Part shown: positions 2,996 to 63,434 of the stretch, piece after piece
Layout: each line of letters opens with the position of its first letter
Numbering within the stretch: position 1 is the stretch's first letter
Origin: Candidatus Magasanikiibacteriota bacterium
GTDB taxonomy: Bacteria > Patescibacteriota > Patescibacteriia > Magasanikbacterales > UBA922
Reading direction: 5' to 3'
DNA: 64,000 bases
NCBI GenBank assembly: GCA_052033375.1
Contig: JBPOJQ010000018.1
Location: 1,671-65,670 of the forward strand
Program-made: the position numbers and the translations under genes
Notes under the pieces: model-generated
The model's input: the letters and a program-made list of their open reading frames with translations, nothing else
Told to the model about the DNA's origin: nothing
The model's database searches: none

Positions 2996-4033
2996 TTAGC
3001 GTAAATACTTATATACATTCGCCGTATGCTCATCCGCAGTCTTTGAATAAATGACTTTTCCTGTATCAAGAGTAGTCAGGAAAAACCAATAATTATTCGG
3101 CGTAGGATGAAGTACTGCATTGATTGAGGACATACTTGGAATTGCAATAGGACCAGCCGGAAGACCTGGATACTTATATGTATTCCACGGAGAATCAATA
3201 GCTCGGTCACTAGCACTCGTAAATACACTGTCAGGAGTGCCTACTACATAATGAACACTCGAATCAGTCTGCAGTGCCCAGCCAGCATTAAGTCGTCGAA
3301 AAAATAAATCTGCAACCATCTTCCGATCTTCTTCGCTTCGCACTTCCTTTTCAATCACACTTGCAATCGTCAAAACCTCATGAACGCTCAAACCAGATTT
3401 CTGGATATCTTGTTTCAAAGTCTCAATCTGTTCCTCTCGCTCTCTAATAAATTTATCCACAATTTCAGACAAAGTAGCATTCGCAAACACATTGAATGTT
3501 TCTGGCGCCAAATATCCTTCAAGACTCACTGCTTCAGGTTTTCCTGCAAATAAAAACGTTTTTGAATCAATATGGTATTCAGGTTTTTGAAATTCCGCAG
3601 GCCGTCCCAACAATGCATACACCTCTGCTTCACGTGCAATTCCCTCTTTCTCAAAATATGCTGCAATATCACGCAGTGTTGATCCCGGAATAATAGTCAC
3701 CACTCGTTCTGCCCCAGACTTTTCTTGTGCAAGTAATCGAGCAACCTCAGCAATCGTCATAGAGGTATCAAAAACAATTGTGCCATGGGTAATTGAACGA
3801 TCGAATTTTTTCCATGCAATATATTTTTGTAAAATTGAAGCACTCGAAACTATCTGTGCATCTTCAAGGCGCTGTGCAATCGAGGCTACGCGCTCACCCT
3901 GCTCAATCGTAAAAGAAACGTCAGAGGTAAAATCAAACTTCTCAACATAAATTTTTCTATACAACACAAAACCAAAGATGCCCAAAACAAGAACGAGTAC
4001 AAATAATAGTCGTTTCACCAACACCGCATTCAT
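2996..4033 (-). CDS. mltG: endolytic murein transglycosylase MltG/YceG
   Basis: 345 aa; N-terminal TM then YceG-like domain. Confidence 0.8.
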   Translation of the reverse strand: MNAVLVKRLLFVLVLVLGIFGFVLYRKIYVEKFDFTSDVSFTIEQGERVASIAQRLEDAQIVSSASILQKYIAWKKFDRSITHGTIVFDTSMTIAEVARLLAQEKSGAERVVTIIPGSTLRDIAAYFEKEGIAREAEVYALLGRPAEFQKPEYHIDSKTFLFAGKPEAVSLEGYLAPETFNVFANATLSEIVDKFIREREEQIETLKQDIQKSGLSVHEVLTIASVIEKEVRSEEDRKMVADLFFRRLNAGWALQTDSSVHYVVGTPDSVFTSASDRAIDSPWNTYKYPGLPAGPIAIPSMSSINAVLHPTPNNYWFFLTTLDTGKVIYSKTADEHTANVYKYLR

Positions 4034-5082
4034 AAGTAATTTTCTTTACCGTCTTCTTGAAGTTTAGACAGCAATGTTTTGATTTCAGGGACCTGATCCT
4101 TATGTACCACCAAAAGCGCATCTTTGGTATTCACGACAATCATACCCTTCAGACCAATCACAGAGACCAGTTTATCTGGCTCATCATTGAAGATAAAAGA
4201 ATCACTCGATCCTATCTCGTAGGTATTACCGATCATAACTGTTTGATCGGGACTACGTTGTAATGCCTCTTTCAATGCATACAGGGTTCCCGGATCACTC
4301 CAACCCAAATCAACAGGCAACACAACTGCCTGAGATTTATCAATTTTTTCAATAATTGCATTATCAAAAGAAGAAGACAATACGCCTGGATATTCAGTTT
4401 CCAAATCACGCGATCCTTGAACCATTTGGAGCACTGCCTCGTATAATTCTTTTTGGTGTTTCTGGTATAACCCTAAAACAAAATCAATATCTGCAACAAA
4501 ATATCCTGGATTCCACTGCCACATACCCGAGTCAAACATTTCTTCACACTCAATCACATCAGGACGGTACTTCCAACCTTCAAAAGAAAACGCTCCTTCT
4601 TCAAGCTCTCTACCCACCTGAATCCAGCCTAGATTATGATTAGGGAATCGTGGTTTTTCTGCAAGAAAAATAAAACGATTACTATCTTCAGCAATCAATT
4701 CTTCAGCCCGAAGAAGAGCTGCACGAAAATTATCAGGCCGTTCCATAAAATGATCCGCCCAAAGCAAGGCAATCGTACCTGAAACCCCCTTCTGTTTGAG
4801 TCGCAAAAGTCCGAGCAATACTGCGGCTGCCAAATCTCTCCTGGCAGGCTCACTCATAACGTGATCTGGAGATATTCCTGAAATCTGTGTCTGTACCAAA
4901 TCCACATACCGACTATTAGTTGATATATAGATATGTTCGAGCCCAAACGATGAAATACGCTCTACCGCCATCTGAAGTGTAGAGGTATCATCTTTTAATT
5001 TTTCAAACTGCTTAGGCGACTTTGATCGGCTGATAGGCCATAATCTCGTCCCCGCTCCACCGGCAAAAATAAGAAAATTCAT
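4030..5082 (-). CDS. mannose-1-phosphate guanylyltransferase
   Basis: MNFLIFAGGAGTRLWPISRSKSPKQF sugar-nucleotidyltransferase signature; start moved to internal Met. Confidence 0.75.
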   Translation of the reverse strand: MNFLIFAGGAGTRLWPISRSKSPKQFEKLKDDTSTLQMAVERISSFGLEHIYISTNSRYVDLVQTQISGISPDHVMSEPARRDLAAAVLLGLLRLKQKGVSGTIALLWADHFMERPDNFRAALLRAEELIAEDSNRFIFLAEKPRFPNHNLGWIQVGRELEEGAFSFEGWKYRPDVIECEEMFDSGMWQWNPGYFVADIDFVLGLYQKHQKELYEAVLQMVQGSRDLETEYPGVLSSSFDNAIIEKIDKSQAVVLPVDLGWSDPGTLYALKEALQRSPDQTVMIGNTYEIGSSDSFIFNDEPDKLVSVIGLKGMIVVNTKDALLVVHKDQVPEIKTLLSKLQEDGKENYL

Positions 5083-24719: not shown

Positions 24720-24885
24720 ACATAAAAAAGAAAAAGCGGCTACTACAAGCCAACAAACTCAAAAAAGAATATCAATAAATAATCGTTATGTCAAAAAAAT
24801 AAACTTGACTGATGTATAGATATTTGGTTAAGTAAAAAGCGGTATTTCACACAAAGTGGACTTCAACCGTCACGGAGGAACACAC

Positions 24886-25521
24886 ATGAAAAACCAACCT
24901 GGTACTAAGTCGAAAACTCAAACTGCTCCTGGTCGAGACAAAGAGGACGAACTCATCTCAAGGTGGAAGCAGGGTGCGTCAAAAGCTTTCAAGGACATGT
25001 ACCGACATTTCCAGAGTTACGTGCTCACGATCGCGATGAGGGTGGTCAACAACCCCGAAAGATCCTGGGACGTGATGCAGGAAGTCTTCCTGAAGATTCA
25101 CCGCTATGGTGATCATTTCGAAGAAGGGACCAATTTCCGAGCATGGATCAGACGGATCACCATCAACACTTCGATCAGTGCTCTGAAAAAAAGCAAAGCT
25201 GATGCACTGAAGAACGAAGAGTACGACGAGCGTCTTCACCGAAACCAGAAAACAGAGACATACTCAGTCGACACGATTCCTGATGCAGCGCTCGAGAACA
25301 AGGAGCTGAACAGCGCAATCCAGGCCGAACTTGATCGACTGCCGCCCGAACGCAAGGAATTGATCGTGCTCTGTGACTGGGAAGGGCTTTCATACCAGGA
25401 GGCAGCGGACAAAACCGGCACCAAAATCGGCACCGTGATGTCTCGCCTCTTCCGAGCCAGGAAAGAAATGATCGAGCGACTCATCAAAAAGCTCGACGAA
25501 TACCCGGGCCACCCGGGGTAA
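24886..25521 (+). CDS. ECF-type RNA polymerase sigma-70 family factor (GC-rich, probably acquired)
   Basis: region 2 (FLKIHRYGDHFEEGTNFRAWIRRITIN) and region 4 HTH (LSYQEAADKTGTKIGTVMSRLFRARKEM); start placed at MKNQ with GGAGGA RBS 5 nt upstream; local GC about 50%. Confidence 0.8.
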   Translation: MKNQPGTKSKTQTAPGRDKEDELISRWKQGASKAFKDMYRHFQSYVLTIAMRVVNNPERSWDVMQEVFLKIHRYGDHFEEGTNFRAWIRRITINTSISALKKSKADALKNEEYDERLHRNQKTETYSVDTIPDAALENKELNSAIQAELDRLPPERKELIVLCDWEGLSYQEAADKTGTKIGTVMSRLFRARKEMIERLIKKLDEYPGHPG

Positions 25522-29172: not shown

Positions 29173-29198
29173 AAAAACTGGGTATTACCCAGTTTTTT
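29173..29198. terminator. bidirectional intrinsic terminator closing the RT–ABC–PLD operon
   Basis: AAAAACTGGG-tatta-CCCAGTTTTTT. Confidence 0.65.
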
Positions 29199-29428: not shown

Positions 29429-30736
29429 TTACTTCGCTTTGTCAAGATTCAAATCAAAAGTTTGTTTGAAAGATTGTGTAATATACGGAATATCACTAAT
29501 CATAATTGACTCATTATTATTAAAAAAACCATTCGTGCTCCAATTATTAGTTCCAAATGCTGCAATAGTACGATCGATCAATAACAAGTGGTGATGGAGG
29601 AAAGAATTAATATCTGTTTCATTGAACACGTCCCGAATTTCAATATTTCGTTTGTAATCAGTAAACACCTGTAAATTGTCCAGGGTATATAAGTCTTTCT
29701 GGGTAGTCAGCCATGGGAATGCAGAATCAGCTACAGAATAATTAGAATCATCAGTAAGTATAGTCAGCGGCAAACCTTCTTTACTTTTTTCAATAAAGGC
29801 CCGGGCAATAGTGCTGTCAGTCAAATTCCAAATCAAAACCTCAATTATTTTTTTAGCCTCAGTAATGAGACGTACAAAACGTGTACGCACACTTGTCATA
29901 TTCGTCGGAGCGGGTGTAAACCAAATTTCTATAAAGCCTTCCGGATAATTAAATAATGCAACATATGGATTACGTTCAGCCAAAGAACCTCCCGTATATA
30001 TACGATTGAATTCTCTACCAAATACCTCAATAATTTCAGGACGAGTGGTTTCTAATACAAAGCTTGGATCATACTTCTCCTGAAGAGAGGTGAAATTATA
30101 CGAACCGAAAAAAAGTTTTGCTGAAGCAAAATTTCGGTCAATGATGATGAACTTATGATGCATCGATCCCAGTGTGCCCTCAGCTCCTGCGTCTACACGC
30201 AATATATTTTGGGGTGGATTATAAAAAACCAAATCATGTGCTGCTTTCCGCTTCTCACTCAAAAGTAATTTAACCTCGACTCCACGTTGGGCAGCGCGAT
30301 AGAGTGCATCGCGTATCAATGGATGATCTATCGAATACACTGCCAACTCGATTTGTACGTCTGCGTCGTCTATCGCATCAATAATCAGAGATGAAAGATG
30401 TGTATTCCCAAAATCAGTATTAAAATATACATGTCCCGAAAACGATTCGGTGACTTGCATAGTCTGTGCAGGTACAAAAACTGAATCCCGAGATGGAATA
30501 TCTGTCGATACTACACGAGAATCCTGTGGTAATGCATACTCAACAATCTCCTGATCATGTGAACGTGTGAACACAAATATACCCACCAATGCGCATGCAA
30601 AAAATAATAAAAATATCGGAATAAACCAAACAAAAAAACGAGAAGTTGTGTGCGGAGGATCAAAGGATGGGTCTAATTTTGGTGCTAAGTTCATGCTGTT
30701 GGGTATAAGGTAAAAAATCATTGGCAGTATTCGCAA
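29429..30736 (-). CDS. phospholipase D (HKD) superfamily protein with N-terminal TM anchor
   Basis: first HKD: HHKFIIIDRNFASAKLFFGSYNFT; second degenerate HKD: HHHLLLIDRTIAAFGTNNWS; TM helix FVWFIPIFLLFFACALVGIFVF; 5' end overlaps upstream gene by 35-77 nt depending on start. Confidence 0.75.
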   Translation of the reverse strand: MRILPMIFYLIPNSMNLAPKLDPSFDPPHTTSRFFVWFIPIFLLFFACALVGIFVFTRSHDQEIVEYALPQDSRVVSTDIPSRDSVFVPAQTMQVTESFSGHVYFNTDFGNTHLSSLIIDAIDDADVQIELAVYSIDHPLIRDALYRAAQRGVEVKLLLSEKRKAAHDLVFYNPPQNILRVDAGAEGTLGSMHHKFIIIDRNFASAKLFFGSYNFTSLQEKYDPSFVLETTRPEIIEVFGREFNRIYTGGSLAERNPYVALFNYPEGFIEIWFTPAPTNMTSVRTRFVRLITEAKKIIEVLIWNLTDSTIARAFIEKSKEGLPLTILTDDSNYSVADSAFPWLTTQKDLYTLDNLQVFTDYKRNIEIRDVFNETDINSFLHHHLLLIDRTIAAFGTNNWSTNGFFNNNESIMISDIPYITQSFKQTFDLNLDKAK

Positions 30737-32417
30737 ATACCAACATGATCGACGTCGGAAGTGCCTGTCCCAATATGCGTATCATATCAATAATACGAGG
30801 ATATTGTAAATCAAGCCAAAAATTATCAATAACCAACACCGGTCGACCGGTGACCAACGAATGAAGTGCATGCAATGCAAAGGCCTGTAATGGATTTCTA
30901 AGTACGGTGTCCGCAGATACAGTATAATTTCCATCGGCCGACACAAGATCCACAATGGAAGGATAGCGATTCATGATACGAAGTGCCTCGGCAAATTCTT
31001 CAGTCGTAATACGGTCTCTTAATTTTCCCATCACGCACTCCATGAGCGTGCGATCAGTCCGAAAATTAGGATCAAAAAAATACACATCACCACACACACT
31101 CTGCCATGCCGTAAATTCAAATCGTTTGGCATCCACAGTGACTTTTATTGCACGCGGATTGTACGCCGTAACGCCAGCAAATAATCGTGCCAACGCAGTC
31201 TTGCCAGTCATATTTGACCCAAAAAATAATACACGGTCACCTGGATTAAAGCCAAAACGGATGTTTCTATGATATGACCCCTCTGAAAAAAGTTTGGTCT
31301 TATGGCTATAAAATCCGAGACTTTTTTCTCTCAGACTACAGGTGGTATCTGCGGTGAGATGCGCACTCGATTGAAAGACAGTCAAAGAAATACCCAACCG
31401 AGCAGGAAATATATAGAGCCCCATTCGCATGGACTCATGTAGCGCACGAGAAAAATAAATAAGTAACAATATGAATAAAAATCGTTCACCACTATCCCCT
31501 GTTCCTAAAAAAGAAAAAAATATTGTAGGAAAAAAATGACTACAAATAGATACGACGACCAAAAAGATAAACACCATCTTGAAACCGAGACGCATCCAAA
31601 TATCTCGACGTATACGGAAAAAAGAATCAAACAGTACCAGTTTATCGAACTTACTGAGAACCGAATCTTGTTGTCGAAATATATTCAAAAAACTAATATT
31701 AGTAGTATTGATATCCATTTCTCTGATAATCTGCGAATAAAACGTAACCTCTTGCGACACATACAATCGTGACACTGCATACCCACCGAAAAATAAAAGT
31801 GCTGACACTAGCACAAATACACCTACAACAGAAAAAACATGGTACTGACTAATTGTTGAAATCAACACTACAATTCCCAAATACATCAACCAGCGCCAGA
31901 ACCCAAAAAAAGTATTAGATACACCAAGGGTAGCAAGTGGCAAATGATAAGAAATCTTTGCAATGAGATTTGCGTGTGTATCTGAAGAAAAATACCTAGA
32001 TGAACGTCCAAGAAAATGCTTAAAAATACGTCGCCTAATGCTATTCGTGAACAGAACCACGAATAACCGTTCATATTTGATGGCAAAAAAAGAATTAACT
32101 AAAAATATACCAATAAGCACTAAAAATAATAATACAAAATGTGTAGACAACCAGAGGCGCGTCCCATCCGAAATCTGATCACGGCTAAAAATAATCAACG
32201 CAGACTCAATAATACCCTGAGAAAACAGTAGCAGTAGTAAGCCGATAATCAACACGCGATGTTTTTTTAAAAAATCACGAAGAAACTGATAATGTTCGCG
32301 AGTAAATAACACATTTCTCCATTCACGACTCTCTTTTTTCGCCAATCTAAGAAGCCGCGCCTGTTCCCGAATCTGTGTACTAAACATAGTAAGATACTCT
32401 ATGTGTATTATTCTCAA
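30660..32417 (-). CDS. ABC-transporter-like fused TMD-NBD protein with degenerate signature and Walker B motifs
   Basis: about 6 TM helices then Walker A GSNMTGKTALARLFAG; LSGGQ replaced by NPLQAF; Walker B VLVIDNF (D-N instead of D-E); start overlaps RT stop (ATGA). Confidence 0.55.
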   Translation of the reverse strand: MRIIHIEYLTMFSTQIREQARLLRLAKKESREWRNVLFTREHYQFLRDFLKKHRVLIIGLLLLLFSQGIIESALIIFSRDQISDGTRLWLSTHFVLLFLVLIGIFLVNSFFAIKYERLFVVLFTNSIRRRIFKHFLGRSSRYFSSDTHANLIAKISYHLPLATLGVSNTFFGFWRWLMYLGIVVLISTISQYHVFSVVGVFVLVSALLFFGGYAVSRLYVSQEVTFYSQIIREMDINTTNISFLNIFRQQDSVLSKFDKLVLFDSFFRIRRDIWMRLGFKMVFIFLVVVSICSHFFPTIFFSFLGTGDSGERFLFILLLIYFSRALHESMRMGLYIFPARLGISLTVFQSSAHLTADTTCSLREKSLGFYSHKTKLFSEGSYHRNIRFGFNPGDRVLFFGSNMTGKTALARLFAGVTAYNPRAIKVTVDAKRFEFTAWQSVCGDVYFFDPNFRTDRTLMECVMGKLRDRITTEEFAEALRIMNRYPSIVDLVSADGNYTVSADTVLRNPLQAFALHALHSLVTGRPVLVIDNFWLDLQYPRIIDMIRILGQALPTSIMLVFANTANDFLPYTQQHELSTKIRPIL

Positions 32418-33634
32418 TTTCGTTCATAATGAAAATTCTTATAATGCTGATAAAATGAGACAATACCAAATTCAGCAATCTCGTTCTTTAATAAGCGTCG
32501 ATGTTGCGGAGAATACTGTCCATAGTAAAACTCAGTAAGAATATGAAAAAAATGCTCAGAAACCACGCGTATCTGAGTAACGTCATTCACCTGCGATTTA
32601 TTCTTAACAATCTCCTGAAATCGAGTATTAAAATTTTTGTATTTACTGCGCATGATATTTTTGAGAATACGTTTTTTCTTTGTTTCTGACTCATGTTTAT
32701 AAAGCAGTAAACTTTTCCACTCGGACTCAATACGGGTGATAAAACTATCTTCAAGACTAATACGCCCATTCGAAAACCGATATCCCAAAAAAGAAAAAGT
32801 GTCTCGGGAAGATCCAATGAACAATTTATCAAAATTAAGCTTCAAGCCTCTCATGTGCAACCTGGCCTGTATGTCCTTCTCTATAACTTTCAATTTTTCA
32901 AGATTTGAATCAACGAGCGCCAAATCATCACCTACACGTATATAAAACTCTACTTGTCTAGCATACAAAAAATCAAGATCAGAGAGATATATATTAGCAA
33001 ACAAAGCAATCAATGGTACACCCTGTACAATTCCGTGGGGTAATTGCTGTATAGTATGACCGTCGTATACACGAGTAAAAACAAACAATTTTAGTATCTC
33101 CAATGTGTGACGATCGGAAAATAATGTGGCCAATTTTTCAACCAAATATTCACGATCAATTAAACTCGAATAATTATGTAAATCCACCACAAGACAATGA
33201 TCAGAAGTAAACCGCCTACGATATCGACGCGCAAAAAGATATGATGCGGTATGCGGAGGTTTACCGGGACGATATGAGAAAAGACGATCAGAAAAACTGC
33301 GTTCAAAAACTGGTAACACCACTCGGTAAATTGCCTGCGCTTTGATTCGTTCCTTGAGTGTATAAATAAAAATCTCACGGGTTTTAGACGGATTATTTTT
33401 CTTTGGAATATGCAACAAAATAGCAGGTTCGATGACTTTTGTATGTATCAATTCATCCTGGATACGGCTCAACAGATCAGTCGAATCAACCTCATAATCC
33501 AATATTTTTTTGTGATCAATGCCGTAATATCGGGACTCCTTACTTTCTTTCGCAAATTTTTGGACAATCTCCAAATATGCAGCCTCCAAATTATCTTTGG
33601 ATATGATTTCTCTAAACATACAATATACAATCAT
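32414..33634 (-). CDS. stand-alone reverse transcriptase (RT domains 1-7 plus about 100-aa C-terminal extension)
   Basis: NLEAAYLEI (RT0/1), SYRPGKPPHTA (RT2), HGIVQGVPLIALFANIYLSDLD (RT4), EFYIRVGDDLALV (motif C with VGDD instead of YADD), LKLNFDKLFIGSSRDTFSFLGYRF (RT7). Confidence 0.8.
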   Translation of the reverse strand: MIVYCMFREIISKDNLEAAYLEIVQKFAKESKESRYYGIDHKKILDYEVDSTDLLSRIQDELIHTKVIEPAILLHIPKKNNPSKTREIFIYTLKERIKAQAIYRVVLPVFERSFSDRLFSYRPGKPPHTASYLFARRYRRRFTSDHCLVVDLHNYSSLIDREYLVEKLATLFSDRHTLEILKLFVFTRVYDGHTIQQLPHGIVQGVPLIALFANIYLSDLDFLYARQVEFYIRVGDDLALVDSNLEKLKVIEKDIQARLHMRGLKLNFDKLFIGSSRDTFSFLGYRFSNGRISLEDSFITRIESEWKSLLLYKHESETKKKRILKNIMRSKYKNFNTRFQEIVKNKSQVNDVTQIRVVSEHFFHILTEFYYGQYSPQHRRLLKNEIAEFGIVSFYQHYKNFHYERN

Positions 33635-33731
33635 CCCCTAATATATCTGACAGATTTCTATCAAATATTGATTATTTCCATTGAGGTCTTCCTTCGCTTA
33701 ATACCGAAGTTCTTTTCCTAAAATCGTCGAC

Positions 33732-33772
33732 ATTTCATGAAAGCTAATGCCGATAGCTATGTATTTCATGAA
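33732..33772 (-). promoter_or_regulatory. palindromic leader element upstream of RT
   Basis: two copies of the self-complementary octamer TTCATGAA (33734-33741, 33765-33772) flanking inner palindrome AGCTA-atgccga-TAGCT. Confidence 0.3.
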
Positions 33773-33952
33773 CCCAGACGACTGCTGGCATCCTGTTATG
33801 ACAAGTGTTAGGGAATGATTGTACAGAGTACGTTATATAAGATAATACAACTAGTATACCGTGAAGTCTCTATATCTGCCAACTCAATATTCAAAAATGA
33901 ACGATGCCACACCCACCTATCCGAAAATAGAGCAGGTGTGGACATCAGTCAG

Positions 33953-34360
33953 CTATGCGCCGAGGGCGCACGCGAAACGAATCTCTTCATCAGTCGCACG
34001 ACGGACGCAGGCGAGGAGGGCATTGACCCATTCCACGCACACGTATGACTCACCGGGGACAAGCCCCTTCGGCGCGAACATACGACACGGACGACGATGC
34101 GAATTCTTGAAGTAGAAGTAAGCCTCACCGAGCCGAGGACGACGGCCCCGATCCTGGAAGATCGGGTAGAAGACCGGAGTATTCGGAAACTGAGAGGCAT
34201 TCACACTGGGAAACGCACGGGCCTCGGGCGGGAGGAGGAACACACGACCCTTAGCAAAAAGGACCGAGGGGGACCAACTCGACGGAGGCACAGGACGGAG
34301 ACCATTATTCCCATCAGTCTGGATCGCCACCCCGGGATTATCTTCCGGATGACACAGCAT
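33953..34360 (-). other. GC-rich block upstream of RT: either orphan 135-aa ORF or structured ncRNA
   Basis: about 58% GC versus 38% background; open in several frames on both strands; minus-strand ORF MLCHPEDNPG… has G-rich RBS (AAGGGGGG-7 nt-ATG) 44 nt downstream of predicted TSS but no recognisable family. Confidence 0.3.
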
Positions 34361-34404
34361 ACAGAAACCCCCCTTGCACAGCCACGCTGGTGATTCAGCG
34401 AGAC

Positions 34405-34440
34405 CAACACAAGATAGATGAAAAAGATGATATTGTCAAG
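34405..34440 (-). promoter_or_regulatory. near-consensus sigma70 promoter firing into the GC-rich block toward the RT
   Basis: minus-strand TTGACA (34434-34439) – 17 nt – TATCTT (34411-34416). Confidence 0.5.
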
Positions 34441-34480
34441 AATAAAAAATAAAAAAGTGACCCAAGTAAATCACTTTTTA
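34441..34480 (-). terminator. intrinsic terminator of ydeI-like gene
   Basis: AAAAAGTGA-cccaagtaaa-TCACTTTTT then T-run on minus strand. Confidence 0.5.
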
Positions 34481-34516
34481 TTCCCCATGTGATGCACAAA
34501 AAACGAAAAAATCACC

Positions 34517-34765
34517 TCAGCGATGCGGACACCCGGCCCAACAACACGGTCGACGCATTCCACCTGCAAGTTTCGAAAGTGCCTTCTCAATACGAATATC
34601 TCTCGTCTCCTGTTTTTTACCAGATGTAACCCAACAAATCCACTCGTTCTTCGCGAGTGGTGTGATGTCGTCCCACACAGCCCGTGCCTTGGGTACAGAA
34701 ATCAAGGCCTTTCGTAAATCTGCTGGAACTTGATGCACCATACGAGTAGTGACTTTTTTATTCAT
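34517..34765 (-). CDS. YdeI/OmpD-associated family (DUF1801-like) small protein, GC-rich
   Basis: start at MNKKVTT; C-terminal KNEWICWVTSGKKQETRDIRIEKALSKLAGG typical of this family. Confidence 0.5.
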   Translation of the reverse strand: MNKKVTTRMVHQVPADLRKALISVPKARAVWDDITPLAKNEWICWVTSGKKQETRDIRIEKALSKLAGGMRRPCCWAGCPHR

Positions 34766-34842: not shown

Positions 34843-34886
34843 GCTCCACGTGGTGGACGATGTTCGAACGTATTTTATGGAAAATA
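34843..34886 (-). repeat. 44-bp cassette R1 copy 1 (putative shared promoter/operator)
   Basis: gctccacgtggtggacgatgttcgaacgtattttatggaaaata identical to 36678-36721; contains palindromes CCACGTGG and GTTCGAAC and TAAAAT; about 80-120 nt upstream of ydeI-like start. Confidence 0.6.
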
Positions 34887-36643: not shown

Positions 36644-36682
36644 AAATAATGACTCAATATAGCCATTATTTTAAGTCGCTCC
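36644..36682 (-). terminator. terminator hairpin R2 copy 1 (after methyltransferase gene)
   Basis: AAAATAATGaCT-caatat-AGCCATTATTTT plus T-run on minus strand; 36/40 identical to 37394-37433. Confidence 0.5.
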
Positions 36683-36721
36683 ACGTGGTGGACGATGTTC
36701 GAACGTATTTTATGGAAAATA
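36678..36721 (-). repeat. 44-bp cassette R1 copy 2, upstream of hyp–HD–EamA-like operon
   Basis: identical to 34843-34886. Confidence 0.6.
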
Positions 36722-53708: not shown

Positions 53709-53782
53709 AGTAATTTAATCTGTAAAACCGAATGCTCCCATACTTTATAGACTTTTTGACTTTCGACTTTTTACTATATAAG

Positions 53783-53856
53783 TAGGCCTGGATGGACTCG
53801 AACCATCGACCCCAACGTTATAAGCGTTGTGCTCTAACCACCTGAGCTACAGGCCC
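53783..53856 (-). tRNA. tRNA-Ile (TAT anticodon)
   Basis: GGGCCTG-TA-GCTC-AGGTGGTTA-GAGC; anticodon stem CAACG/CGTTG, loop CTTATAA; T-arm GATGG-TTCGAGT-CCATC. Confidence 0.7.
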
Positions 53857-62853: not shown

Positions 62854-63434
62854 ACCTGTTCAGTAAATAAACGATCATCCAACCATTTTTTAGGATTATT
62901 CCTAATATACAGTCGAATTCGATGTAATTCAAATTCATTACGAATGACATGATCATAATATCGGGATTGCCATTCAAATTCAATACCCGCATTACGGGCA
63001 TATTTCGTAACCCCGATTTTATATCCACGAATGATTGATGGAATATTTTTTGATTGCATACCAAATTTATTTGGTTGCCAATCATTTTTTTGGGATTCCA
63101 TAATCCACACAATACCATGAACATGGTTGGGCATTACCACGAATTCGTCCAATTCCACAAATGGGAAATGCACGGGTATTTCCTGCCAACAACCCAATGC
63201 CTGTTTACCGATTTCCGTCATCCGTAGGGACGCAAAATATTGCGTCCCTACTACCCCACACGTTTCTGCGTCATTTACAATATTTTGCGCCCCAACGGAT
63301 ATTGACCCAAAATAATTCACCCGATTTTTCGTACAAATGGTAATAAAATACGCCCACGACGCACCATAATCCCATTTTTGCCACCGCGTCGTATCATTTC
63401 GATATCGATTCCGAAATAAACCCCCCTTCGACAT
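62850..63434 (-). CDS. IS200-like HuH (Y1) transposase-family protein, apparently domesticated
   Basis: HuH motif NHVHGIVWI and catalytic-Tyr region WQSRYYDHVIRNEFELHRIRLYIRNNP; 4-nt overlap with rluA-like and 6-nt gap to rlmI-like gene; no flanking inverted repeats. Confidence 0.6.
   Translation of the reverse strand: MSKGGLFRNRYRNDTTRWQKWDYGASWAYFITICTKNRVNYFGSISVGAQNIVNDAETCGVVGTQYFASLRMTEIGKQALGCWQEIPVHFPFVELDEFVVMPNHVHGIVWIMESQKNDWQPNKFGMQSKNIPSIIRGYKIGVTKYARNAGIEFEWQSRYYDHVIRNEFELHRIRLYIRNNPKKWLDDRLFTEQV

Follow-up and report, generated by a model that had tools for sequence, protein, structure and literature searches.

Characterized systems in which a domesticated reverse transcriptase (RT) acts with a non-coding RNA (ncRNA) and effector proteins (retrons, the defense-associated RTs DRT2, DRT3 and DRT9, and DRT10/UG17 with a SLATT protein) are anti-phage. 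A survey of unknown group (UG) and abortive infection (Abi) RTs and a review of prokaryotic RTs indicate that such systems commonly use membrane effectors (PMC9226505, PMC8632793). Here we describe a locus in a 64,000-nt stretch of DNA (the window) from a Candidatus Magasanikiibacteriota bacterium (contig JBPOJQ010000018.1, positions 1,671 to 65,670). Its minus strand encodes an RT, a protein resembling ATP-binding cassette (ABC) exporters and a protein of the phospholipase D (PLD) superfamily, and a pseudoknotted RNA of ~205 nt lies directly 5' of the RT gene. A sequence-only reading of the window had presented this locus as a three-gene unit; the three genes stand, whereas the unit was not complete as described, its fourth part, the RNA, having been overlooked. 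We are nearly certain that RNA, RT, ABC-like protein and PLD protein form a single module. All four are co-inherited in a fixed order, and the genes are adjacent or overlap. Domesticated RTs with ncRNA and effectors are already known; this partner set and its topology are unprecedented. Full-text literature searches turned up no description of an RT partnered by ABC and PLD proteins, nor of the upstream RNA, and a term search of PMC9226505, PMC8632793 and PMC8934634 (myRT) gave no mention of the unit, in agreement with the earlier impression that the partner set had not been described.

The linkage of the three genes is strict. Searching the open reading frames (ORFs) with phmmer, we found RT, ABC-like gene and PLD gene in this order, on the same strand and overlapping or abutting, in 62 of 62 loci with enough downstream DNA (there are 66 RT-anchored loci in all, the other four being cut by a contig end, and a few represent the same contig fetched by two tools). 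Across these loci the RTs are 33–83% identical to that of the window. In six context look-ups, at 36–74% RT identity, the RT is followed by a protein of ~570 residues and then by a PLDc_2 protein, and the flanks differ. Reverse look-ups starting from two PLD relatives and one ABC relative led to the same trio (3/3). The co-inherited operon proposed earlier is thus recovered from each of the three proteins as a starting point, RT, PLD or ABC-like, wherever the locus is long enough. The alternative offered at the time, an orphan RT beside ABC and PLD proteins for lipid or cardiolipin export, is contradicted by this reciprocal linkage.

The protein families themselves are well delimited. RT homologs form 136 clusters at 90% identity, and all clusters that carry a taxon label belong to the Patescibacteria, for example to Magasanikbacteria and Falkowbacteria. 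The ABC-like family is small and isolated: of 1.84 billion representatives, searched at E <= 1e-30, 87 clusters belong to it, and canonical ABC proteins reach at most ~57 bits against the family profile. The PLD family is set off from its next relatives by a score gap from 182 to 84 bits. A scan of 185,579 species genomes (one genome per species), which required one peptide pattern, contributed 58 of the loci. The module is confined to the Patescibacteria, or candidate phyla radiation (CPR). Several genomes carry two or three copies; the RTs of such copies are only 42–64% identical, which marks them as old paralogs and not as products of recent transposition. Two cassette-bearing contigs come from metagenome-assembled genomes with non-CPR labels, Omnitrophica (locus L059) and Flavobacteriaceae (L063), for which mis-binning and horizontal transfer are both possible; over the part aligned 5' of the RT gene, L063 is nearly identical to locus L062.

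The RNA first stands out as nucleotide similarity that reaches ~200 nt upstream of the RT start, even where the RTs are only 55–58% identical to that of the window. An alignment of this upstream region contains conserved blocks and covarying arms. RNAalifold predicted 30 pairs, 25 of them with compensatory changes. Our hand-built structure of 47 pairs consists of a closing helix P1, hairpins and a nested B-C-D stack, with a pseudoknot that joins the strand 5' of helix B to the loop of hairpin D; it is 87.9% paired, versus 74% in column shuffles and 33–46% after the partners have been shifted by one to three columns. In a 40-sequence model-based alignment, pairing in the pseudoknot reaches 99.6%, with double changes at 6 of 6 pairs, and since the number of double changes differs among these pairs, several independent events appear to be involved. 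A covariance model (R1) built without the pseudoknot matches the window at 33828..33623 (minus strand) with 148.5 bits and also finds the RNA 5' of the RT in most loci, and the minimum free energy fold of the window RNA alone has the same nested helices.

In the window, all elements lie on the minus strand. Helix P1 pairs 33822-33808 with 33641-33627, and its 3' arm (GGGGAUGAUU) stops a few nucleotides short of the RT start codon in most loci. Inside it follow the P2 hairpin (33805-33802 with 33795-33792), the pseudoknot strand (33791-33786, pairing with loop 33752-33747), helix B (33782-33777 with 33728-33723), helix C (33772-33764 with 33742-33734), hairpin D (33758-33754 with 33746-33742), a variable hairpin E (33709-33705 with 33696-33692), the conserved single strand CCUCAAUGGAAAUAAUCA (33686-33669) and hairpin F (33668-33658 with 33653-33643).

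An nhmmer search places the RNA immediately 5' of the RT gene in 43 of 59 loci. In the most divergent RT clade, compared by nhmmer and in a separate plain MAFFT alignment, the RNA has diverged in sequence but keeps the B-C-D-pseudoknot core, which is 93.4% paired and has compensatory changes at 21 of 24 pairs. Among 241 million metagenome records, a 22-nt motif of the RNA is present at four places; in every case a gene of this RT family lies directly downstream of it, followed by an ABC-like gene, and the PLD gene comes next in two of the four, those whose stored DNA reaches far enough. The RNA was found only with this RT family. Rfam has no family for it, as judged from the window at gathering score and from 33500-34700 at E <= 10. 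Five loci contain two or three complete tandem copies (L008, 7137-7952; L019, 6519-6999; L027, 6635-7013; L037, 924-1509; L066, 6405-6987), and in L008 the last copy ends ~50–70 nt before the RT start. In L018 (3809-7007) there are three tandem type IV pilin-like paralogs, with the RNA (4820-4997) between the first and the second; it thus lies 2 kb upstream of the RT, with two pilin-like genes in between.

Two other ideas about RNA at this locus were dropped. A rolling-circle 'never-ending ORF' across the P1-enclosed RNA, as in DRT2, does not fit its lengths, which are spread over the three classes modulo 3 (10, 13 and 17 sequences), nor the near absence of a stop-free frame. The GC-rich stretch at 33950-34400, considered as an RNA partner of the RT, gave no Rfam match, a fold z-score of 0.18 and no Pfam match in its ORFs, and is absent from relatives of 83% identity. 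This stretch, of ~47–55% GC against a background near 40%, lies between an OmdA-like gene and the RT promoter, and is missing from L009 and L010. Elsewhere in the window, 62888-63055 (minus strand) matches the RNA model weakly (20 bits, E ~0.09) with no RT gene nearby, and is probably noise.

The RT gene (32414..33619, minus strand, 401 residues) is assigned by Pfam RVT_1 (52 bits) and by conservation within the family. The catalytic box R[VIL]GDD is present in 60 of 60 members, as RVGDD in the window, which substantiates the earlier description of an RT with a VGDD box, and the catalytic residues of blocks 3 (Asp) and 5 (GDD), D151, G235, D236 and D237, are invariant in 38 sequences along with the other RT-block residues. 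Against solved RTs, the family profile scores best with group II RTs (107–118 bits), followed by Cas6-RT-Cas1 (102), LtrA (66), a 499-aa RT that we take to be, probably, DRT9 (62), DRT2 (53), the 328-aa RT of entry 8ub7, presumably that of the Bordetella phage diversity-generating retroelement (DGR) (52), G2L4 (40) and retron Ec86 (33). Among the PADLOC models, generic RT (130 bits) is ahead of UG26 (113), RT-Cas1 (98), UG17 (86) and retron RT_II-A (18). We conclude that the RT is group II intron-like, of a group II-like (G2L) type lineage, and its conserved residues predict an active enzyme.

With the RTs of group II introns (GsI-IIC, E. rectale, R. intestinalis, LtrA), its best matches, the RT shares an N-terminal extension, RT blocks 1–7 and a QGxP block 4. 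In contrast to these introns, the unit has no intron RNA domains and no GIIM/maturase match (Pfam, E <= 0.1) or D/En domain; YADD is replaced by R[VIL]GDD, and the RT gene invariably shares an operon with the genes for two membrane proteins. An intact mobile group II intron was rejected on these grounds: Rfam, whose models include Intron_gpII and group-II-D1D4, identifies no ribozyme domains in the window at gathering score or in 33500-34700 at E <= 10, the ABC-like gene begins 26 nt past the RT stop, and the group_II_RT_mat model TIGR04416 gives 118.5 bits, far short of its cut-off of 300. Domesticated group II-like RTs (G2L, including G2L4, and RT-Cas1) are likewise free-standing, of group II ancestry and without an intron; nevertheless G2L4 reaches only 40 bits against the family profile, and the unit lacks the cas genes of RT-Cas1. 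G2L4 carries out DNA repair on its own, needing neither a partner RNA nor membrane proteins (10.1101/2022.03.14.484287), and the G2L neighborhood given in the review is a Que/YaaA cassette, not ABC and PLD (PMC8632793).

Retrons, including retron-Septu (msr/msd, PtuA ATPase, PtuB nuclease) and those with transmembrane effectors, also have a structured ncRNA 5' of the RT, with a long-range closing helix (a1/a2) comparable to P1 and, as here, ATPase-like and nuclease-like partners. They differ in RT lineage and in the conserved G after the 5' arm of the RNA, which the unit lacks; moreover, unlike retron-Septu, its ATPase-like protein has a membrane exporter fold without hydrolysis motifs and its nuclease-like protein is predicted to be extracytoplasmic. 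A retron-type RT was rejected because none of 60 members carries the VTG motif and a single one carries NAxxH, and Ec86 scores 33 bits versus 118 for group II RTs. Profile scores, motifs and the lack of intron RNA domains thus place the RT outside both mobile group II introns and canonical retrons, which supports the sequence-only reading. The UG and DRT enzymes (UG26; UG17/DRT10 with SLATT; DRT2 and DRT9) are likewise paired with an ncRNA or a membrane effector, and the UG26 and UG17 models do match the RT, but the generic RT (130 bits) and group II (118) models score as high or higher. Some UG26 members have a Vsr-like endonuclease partner, according to the survey (PMC9226505). The unit contains no such partner. 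A DGR was also rejected, with 8ub7 at 52 bits versus 118 for group II RTs: no pair of template and variable repeats was seen, there is no direct repeat >44 nt within 10 kb, no part of the RNA region recurs elsewhere in the 64-kb window, and block 4 reads QGxP, which differs from the DGR-type motif.

The second gene (30660..32387, minus strand) encodes the ABC-exporter-like half-transporter, with six transmembrane helices and a nucleotide-binding domain (NBD), in 575 residues from a conserved ATG. Both Pfam ABC_membrane and ABC_tran score below their curated cut-offs (ABC_tran 18.7 bits vs 25). The AlphaFold model (pLDDT 84) nevertheless has the full fold of a type IV exporter half-transporter, and Foldseek aligns it over ~570 residues with MsbA, TM287/288, TAP and PglK at TM-scores of 0.65–0.71 (MsbA 0.71) and 12–16% identity. 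On this model, the protein is a six-helix exporter transmembrane fold with an NBD. Conserved Arg-rich segments (FRVRRD and SRxxxESLR) lie in the cytoplasmic extensions of transmembrane helices 5 and 6, as placed by the secondary structure of the model. In locus L073 the ABC-like gene (3324-5029) appears as a pair of called ORFs, 210 and 352 residues long, which could reflect a frameshift, a pseudogene or an assembly error; the organism is abundant, its PLD protein being listed in 85 blocks of the collection.

The NBD had been described as degenerate, with VLVIDNF and NPLQAF in place of Walker B and the ABC signature, and this is upheld: most of the hydrolysis motifs are missing across the whole family. 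Residue by residue, the picture is mixed. As in the type IV exporters that share the predicted fold, Walker A (GxxxSGKT) is conserved and the Walker B Asp invariant, whereas the catalytic Glu is replaced by Asn in at least 90% of members and the Q-loop Gln by Asp, and there is no LSGGQ signature and no H-switch. These substitutions suggest that the NBD probably cannot hydrolyze ATP. In contrast to heterodimeric ABC proteins with one degenerate site, a single gene encodes the ABC-like protein here, and both sites of a homodimer would be degenerate and non-hydrolytic.

The third gene (29429..30694, minus strand, 421 residues from a conserved ATG) encodes a PLD-superfamily two-domain phosphodiesterase with an N-terminal signal-anchor helix. 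PLDc_2 matches at 115 bits over two stretches. The first motif, MHHKFxxID (HxK(x)4D), is followed by GSYNFT and the second, FLHHHLLIxD (HxH(x)4D), by GTNNWS; none of the motif residues (H, K or H, and D) varies in either motif among 53 sequences, in line with the two HKD motifs, the second an HxH variant, and the N-terminal transmembrane helix noted earlier. In sequence, the relatives are the nucleases Nuc, Zucchini and NucT. The protein scores 70 bits against the NucT model, 26 against cardiolipin synthase TIGR04265 (cut-off 290) and 15 against PRK12452 (cut-off 787), all below cut-offs, so that it is not a cardiolipin synthase ortholog, an outcome in keeping with the earlier reading. The fold of the AlphaFold model (pLDDT 90) matches bacterial PLD, vaccinia F13 and PLD3/PLD4, with 13–18% identity to solved structures, and its relatives also include PssA and PLD1/2. 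The modeled fold is that of a two-lobed, nuclease-like PLD-superfamily protein with a variant second motif, and catalytic activity is putative. Around the N-terminal helix, Lys and Arg residues average 4.9 before and 2.1 after it, and 49 of 57 members have the larger number before the helix; by the positive-inside rule, this bias predicts an N-in orientation with the catalytic domain outside the cell. The protein thus shares HKD chemistry with PLD nucleases (Nuc, NucT, Zucchini/MitoPLD) and PLD3/PLD4, and resembles PLD3/PLD4 in the two-lobed fold and in a predicted type II anchor with a non-cytoplasmic catalytic domain, but differs from these proteins in the invariant His for Lys in its second motif and in its low identity to solved structures.

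Our tentative preference is for a phage-defense module in which the RT and its ncRNA act as a sensor or regulator controlling a membrane effector pair. The RT would bind the upstream RNA and may copy part of it, as the RTs of retrons, DRT2 and DRT9 do. The resulting ribonucleoprotein would dock on the cytoplasmic, non-hydrolyzing NBD of the ABC-like protein, and a change in the state of the ribonucleoprotein or the cDNA, most plausibly brought about by phage infection, would switch the membrane pair. The exporter-fold protein might then hand the outward-facing PLD its substrate, either a membrane lipid or nucleic acid at the site of entry, and infection would be blocked or the infected cell would die. 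We favor phage defense because of the base rate of RT-ncRNA-effector systems, and because the rarity and patchiness of the module, its variable flanks and its two or three diverged paralogs in some genomes give the population pattern of defense genes.

Several points weigh against this reading. An outside-facing PLD, if the predicted topology holds, cannot cut cytoplasmic phage DNA or the RT product unless these are exported, and with an NBD that probably does not hydrolyze ATP, active lipid flipping would need another energy source. Nor do the flanks offer support: the check for defense-island localization suggested earlier came out negative, as scans of the neighbors with PADLOC and Pfam revealed neither such an island nor conserved flanks. 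Among 128 neighboring proteins from ~50 loci there were at most four hits per PADLOC family, and these were to generic helicase models, although PADLOC coverage of the CPR is probably poor; Pfam analysis of the neighboring proteins gave no functional theme. Many copies are located among housekeeping genes, e.g., those for FtsH, L32, NusB, RNase III, PNPase and NrdD. The anti-phage role and every step of the mechanism are inferred from the analyses above. Of the original anti-phage proposal, the co-inherited RT operon holds, whereas there is no defense neighborhood, and an outward PLD is a poor match for a simple pairing of RT and cytoplasmic nuclease effector.

A rival that we consider rather unlikely, yet the most serious, is that the module serves the passage of nucleic acid across the membrane instead of immunity. 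In an export version, the RT would copy RNA to cDNA, the exporter-fold protein would pass the product and the surface PLD would trim or release it. In an import version, the surface PLD would process host RNA or DNA, like NucT/NucA in competence, the ABC-like protein would be the conduit, and polymerization by the RT on the incoming strand would supply a pulling force in place of the dead ATPase. Either would suit the scavenging, episymbiotic lifestyle of the CPR. The topology agrees with such traffic, with the RT and its RNA in the cell, a membrane-spanning transporter fold and a nuclease-like PLD predicted outside that is nearest to Nuc, NucT and Zucchini in sequence and resembles PLD3/PLD4 in fold. 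PLD3 and PLD4 are type II membrane-anchored exonucleases that act on single-stranded nucleic acid. An NBD without hydrolysis residues calls for another energy source, and the Arg-rich cytoplasmic segments, the restriction to the CPR, the frequent housekeeping surroundings, the thymidine kinase or NrdD genes near some loci and the interleaving of RNA and RT with type IV pilin-like genes in L018 all point the same way. On the other hand, we know of no ABC exporter-fold protein that carries nucleic acid, and the rare, patchy occurrence within the CPR would be odd for a core nutritional function. The nucleotide-metabolism neighbors are inconsistent, with thymidine kinase near the module in 6 of 60 loci, all related by synteny, and import gives no reason for a dedicated structured RNA. 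The most specific formulation, in which the RT and pseudoknotted RNA sit on a hydrolysis-dead ABC scaffold and polymerization drives nucleic acid to or from the surface PLD (cDNA secretion or uptake of host RNA or DNA), seems to us unlikely.

We also regard as improbable that the RNA is only a cis-regulatory leader, either a riboswitch or an RT-binding site like subdomain DIVa of group II introns, with the RT in a template-independent or repair role and the ABC-like and PLD proteins remodeling or salvaging envelope lipids. Group II intron RTs bind DIVa and so repress their own translation, which provides a precedent for autorepression. The RNA is indeed situated in the 5' leader, no terminator separates it from the RT gene, and the position of the P1 3' arm a few nucleotides before the start codon in most loci means that folding could affect translation. 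For the lipid part, the closest folds of the ABC-like protein are flippases of lipids and lipid-linked oligosaccharides (MsbA, PglK), and PssA and PLD1/2 are among the fold relatives of the PLD protein. A leader does not, however, account for the complete tandem copies in five loci, for the distance of the last copy from the RT start in L008 or for the 2-kb separation in L018. The purine run lies ~15–20 nt from the RT AUG, far for a Shine-Dalgarno sequence, the RNA occurs only with this RT family, the invariant active site argues for a polymerase function tied to the operon, and the cardiolipin synthase models remain far below their cut-offs.

That the unit is a selfish or formerly mobile retroelement, either a degenerate group II intron or a new retrotransposon with two passenger genes, is very improbable: the RT does have those of mobile group II introns as its nearest matches, some genomes hold several copies and IS200-like genes flank one of them, but group II ribozyme domains are missing in Rfam searches at gathering score and at E <= 10, the ABC-like gene and not domains V–VI directly follows the RT, no terminal repeats or target duplications were seen around the unit, copies within a genome are too divergent (42–64%), and phage collections contain next to none of it.

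Wherever its function lies, an ABC exporter fold without hydrolysis motifs joined to an outward PLD was not found with any RT system in the literature searched. Despite their tiny genomes with few recognized defense systems, some CPR bacteria retain two or three divergent versions of the 4.5-kb unit, suggestive of strong selection. If the unit is a defense system, it would extend the theme of RT-ncRNA immunity to the membrane and the cell surface; if it handles nucleic-acid traffic, it would represent a new membrane role for reverse transcription, relevant to exchange between episymbiont and host. The RT and RNA are compact (401 residues and ~200 nt) and could interest builders of RT-based methods.

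The three ORFs are consecutive on the minus strand at the coordinates initially reported, 33634..32414 (406 aa), 32417..30660 (585 aa) and 30736..29429 (435 aa), and the motifs quoted at the time (RVGDD, VLVIDNF, NPLQAF, MHHKFIIID and FLHHHLLLID) are present. These ORFs stand as called, but comparison with homologs shifts the starts and shortens the proteins to 401, 575 and 421 residues. For the RT, an ATG equivalent to that at 33619 is found in most homologous loci, and database entry P0001 also has 401 residues. The reported ATGA overlap of the RT stop with the ABC-like start is incorrect: the stop overlaps a TTG (TTGA), at which the longest ORF begins (32417), and the conserved ATG lies 26 nt past the RT stop, at 32387. 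The PLD gene starts at the ATG at 30694, within the longest ORF from 30736, and overlaps the end of the ABC-like gene by 35 nt. The promoter-like site (TTGGCA-18-TATACT, 33853..33882, minus strand, from a consensus scan) and the terminator-like hairpin 3' of the PLD gene (29173..29197, minus strand, an inverted repeat with an 11-bp palindromic stem and A and T runs on either side) reported before were both recovered, as pattern matches only. Promoter-type matches are no more frequent in the region than in shuffled sequence; a TATACT or TATAAT box is visible by eye at a similar place in the alignment of several homologous loci.

There is no conserved flanking gene, the best recurrent neighbor being present in 11 of 60 loci, all in one subclade. 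In L037-L041, L043, L048, L049, L057, L066 and L072, a secreted or anchored protein of ~197 residues, with repeated NNDYxxW segments and no Pfam family, is encoded 3' of the PLD gene on the same strand, ~4.1–4.3 kb after the RT start. The RTs of this subclade are 36–40% identical to that of the window, and cupredoxin-like genes are often next. Isolated hints of a defense context come from two loci, one of which has genes for a DUF4268 protein and a KAP NTPase nearby, while the other is flanked on both sides by IS200-like transposases. As a phage-borne element the module was rejected, with RT and RNA together in one of 2.9 million IMG/VR contigs and in none of the GenBank phages. An extracytoplasmic function (ECF)-like sigma-70 gene follows the PLD gene directly in L022, L023, L025 and L044 (Falkowbacteria-like), which may be only synteny; in the window, an ECF-like sigma-70 gene (24856-25521) is 4 kb away on the other strand.

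On the other side of the RT, a 44-nt perfect direct repeat (34843-34886 and 36678-36721) flanks a 1.8-kb segment with an EamA-like gene, an HD-domain gene and a gene for a 111-aa protein. The repeat sequence is also duplicated in L009 (752-796 and 1149-1193). Further along the window, ARAGORN identifies a tRNA-Ile with anticodon UAU (53782-53856), an uncommon bacterial way of reading AUA.

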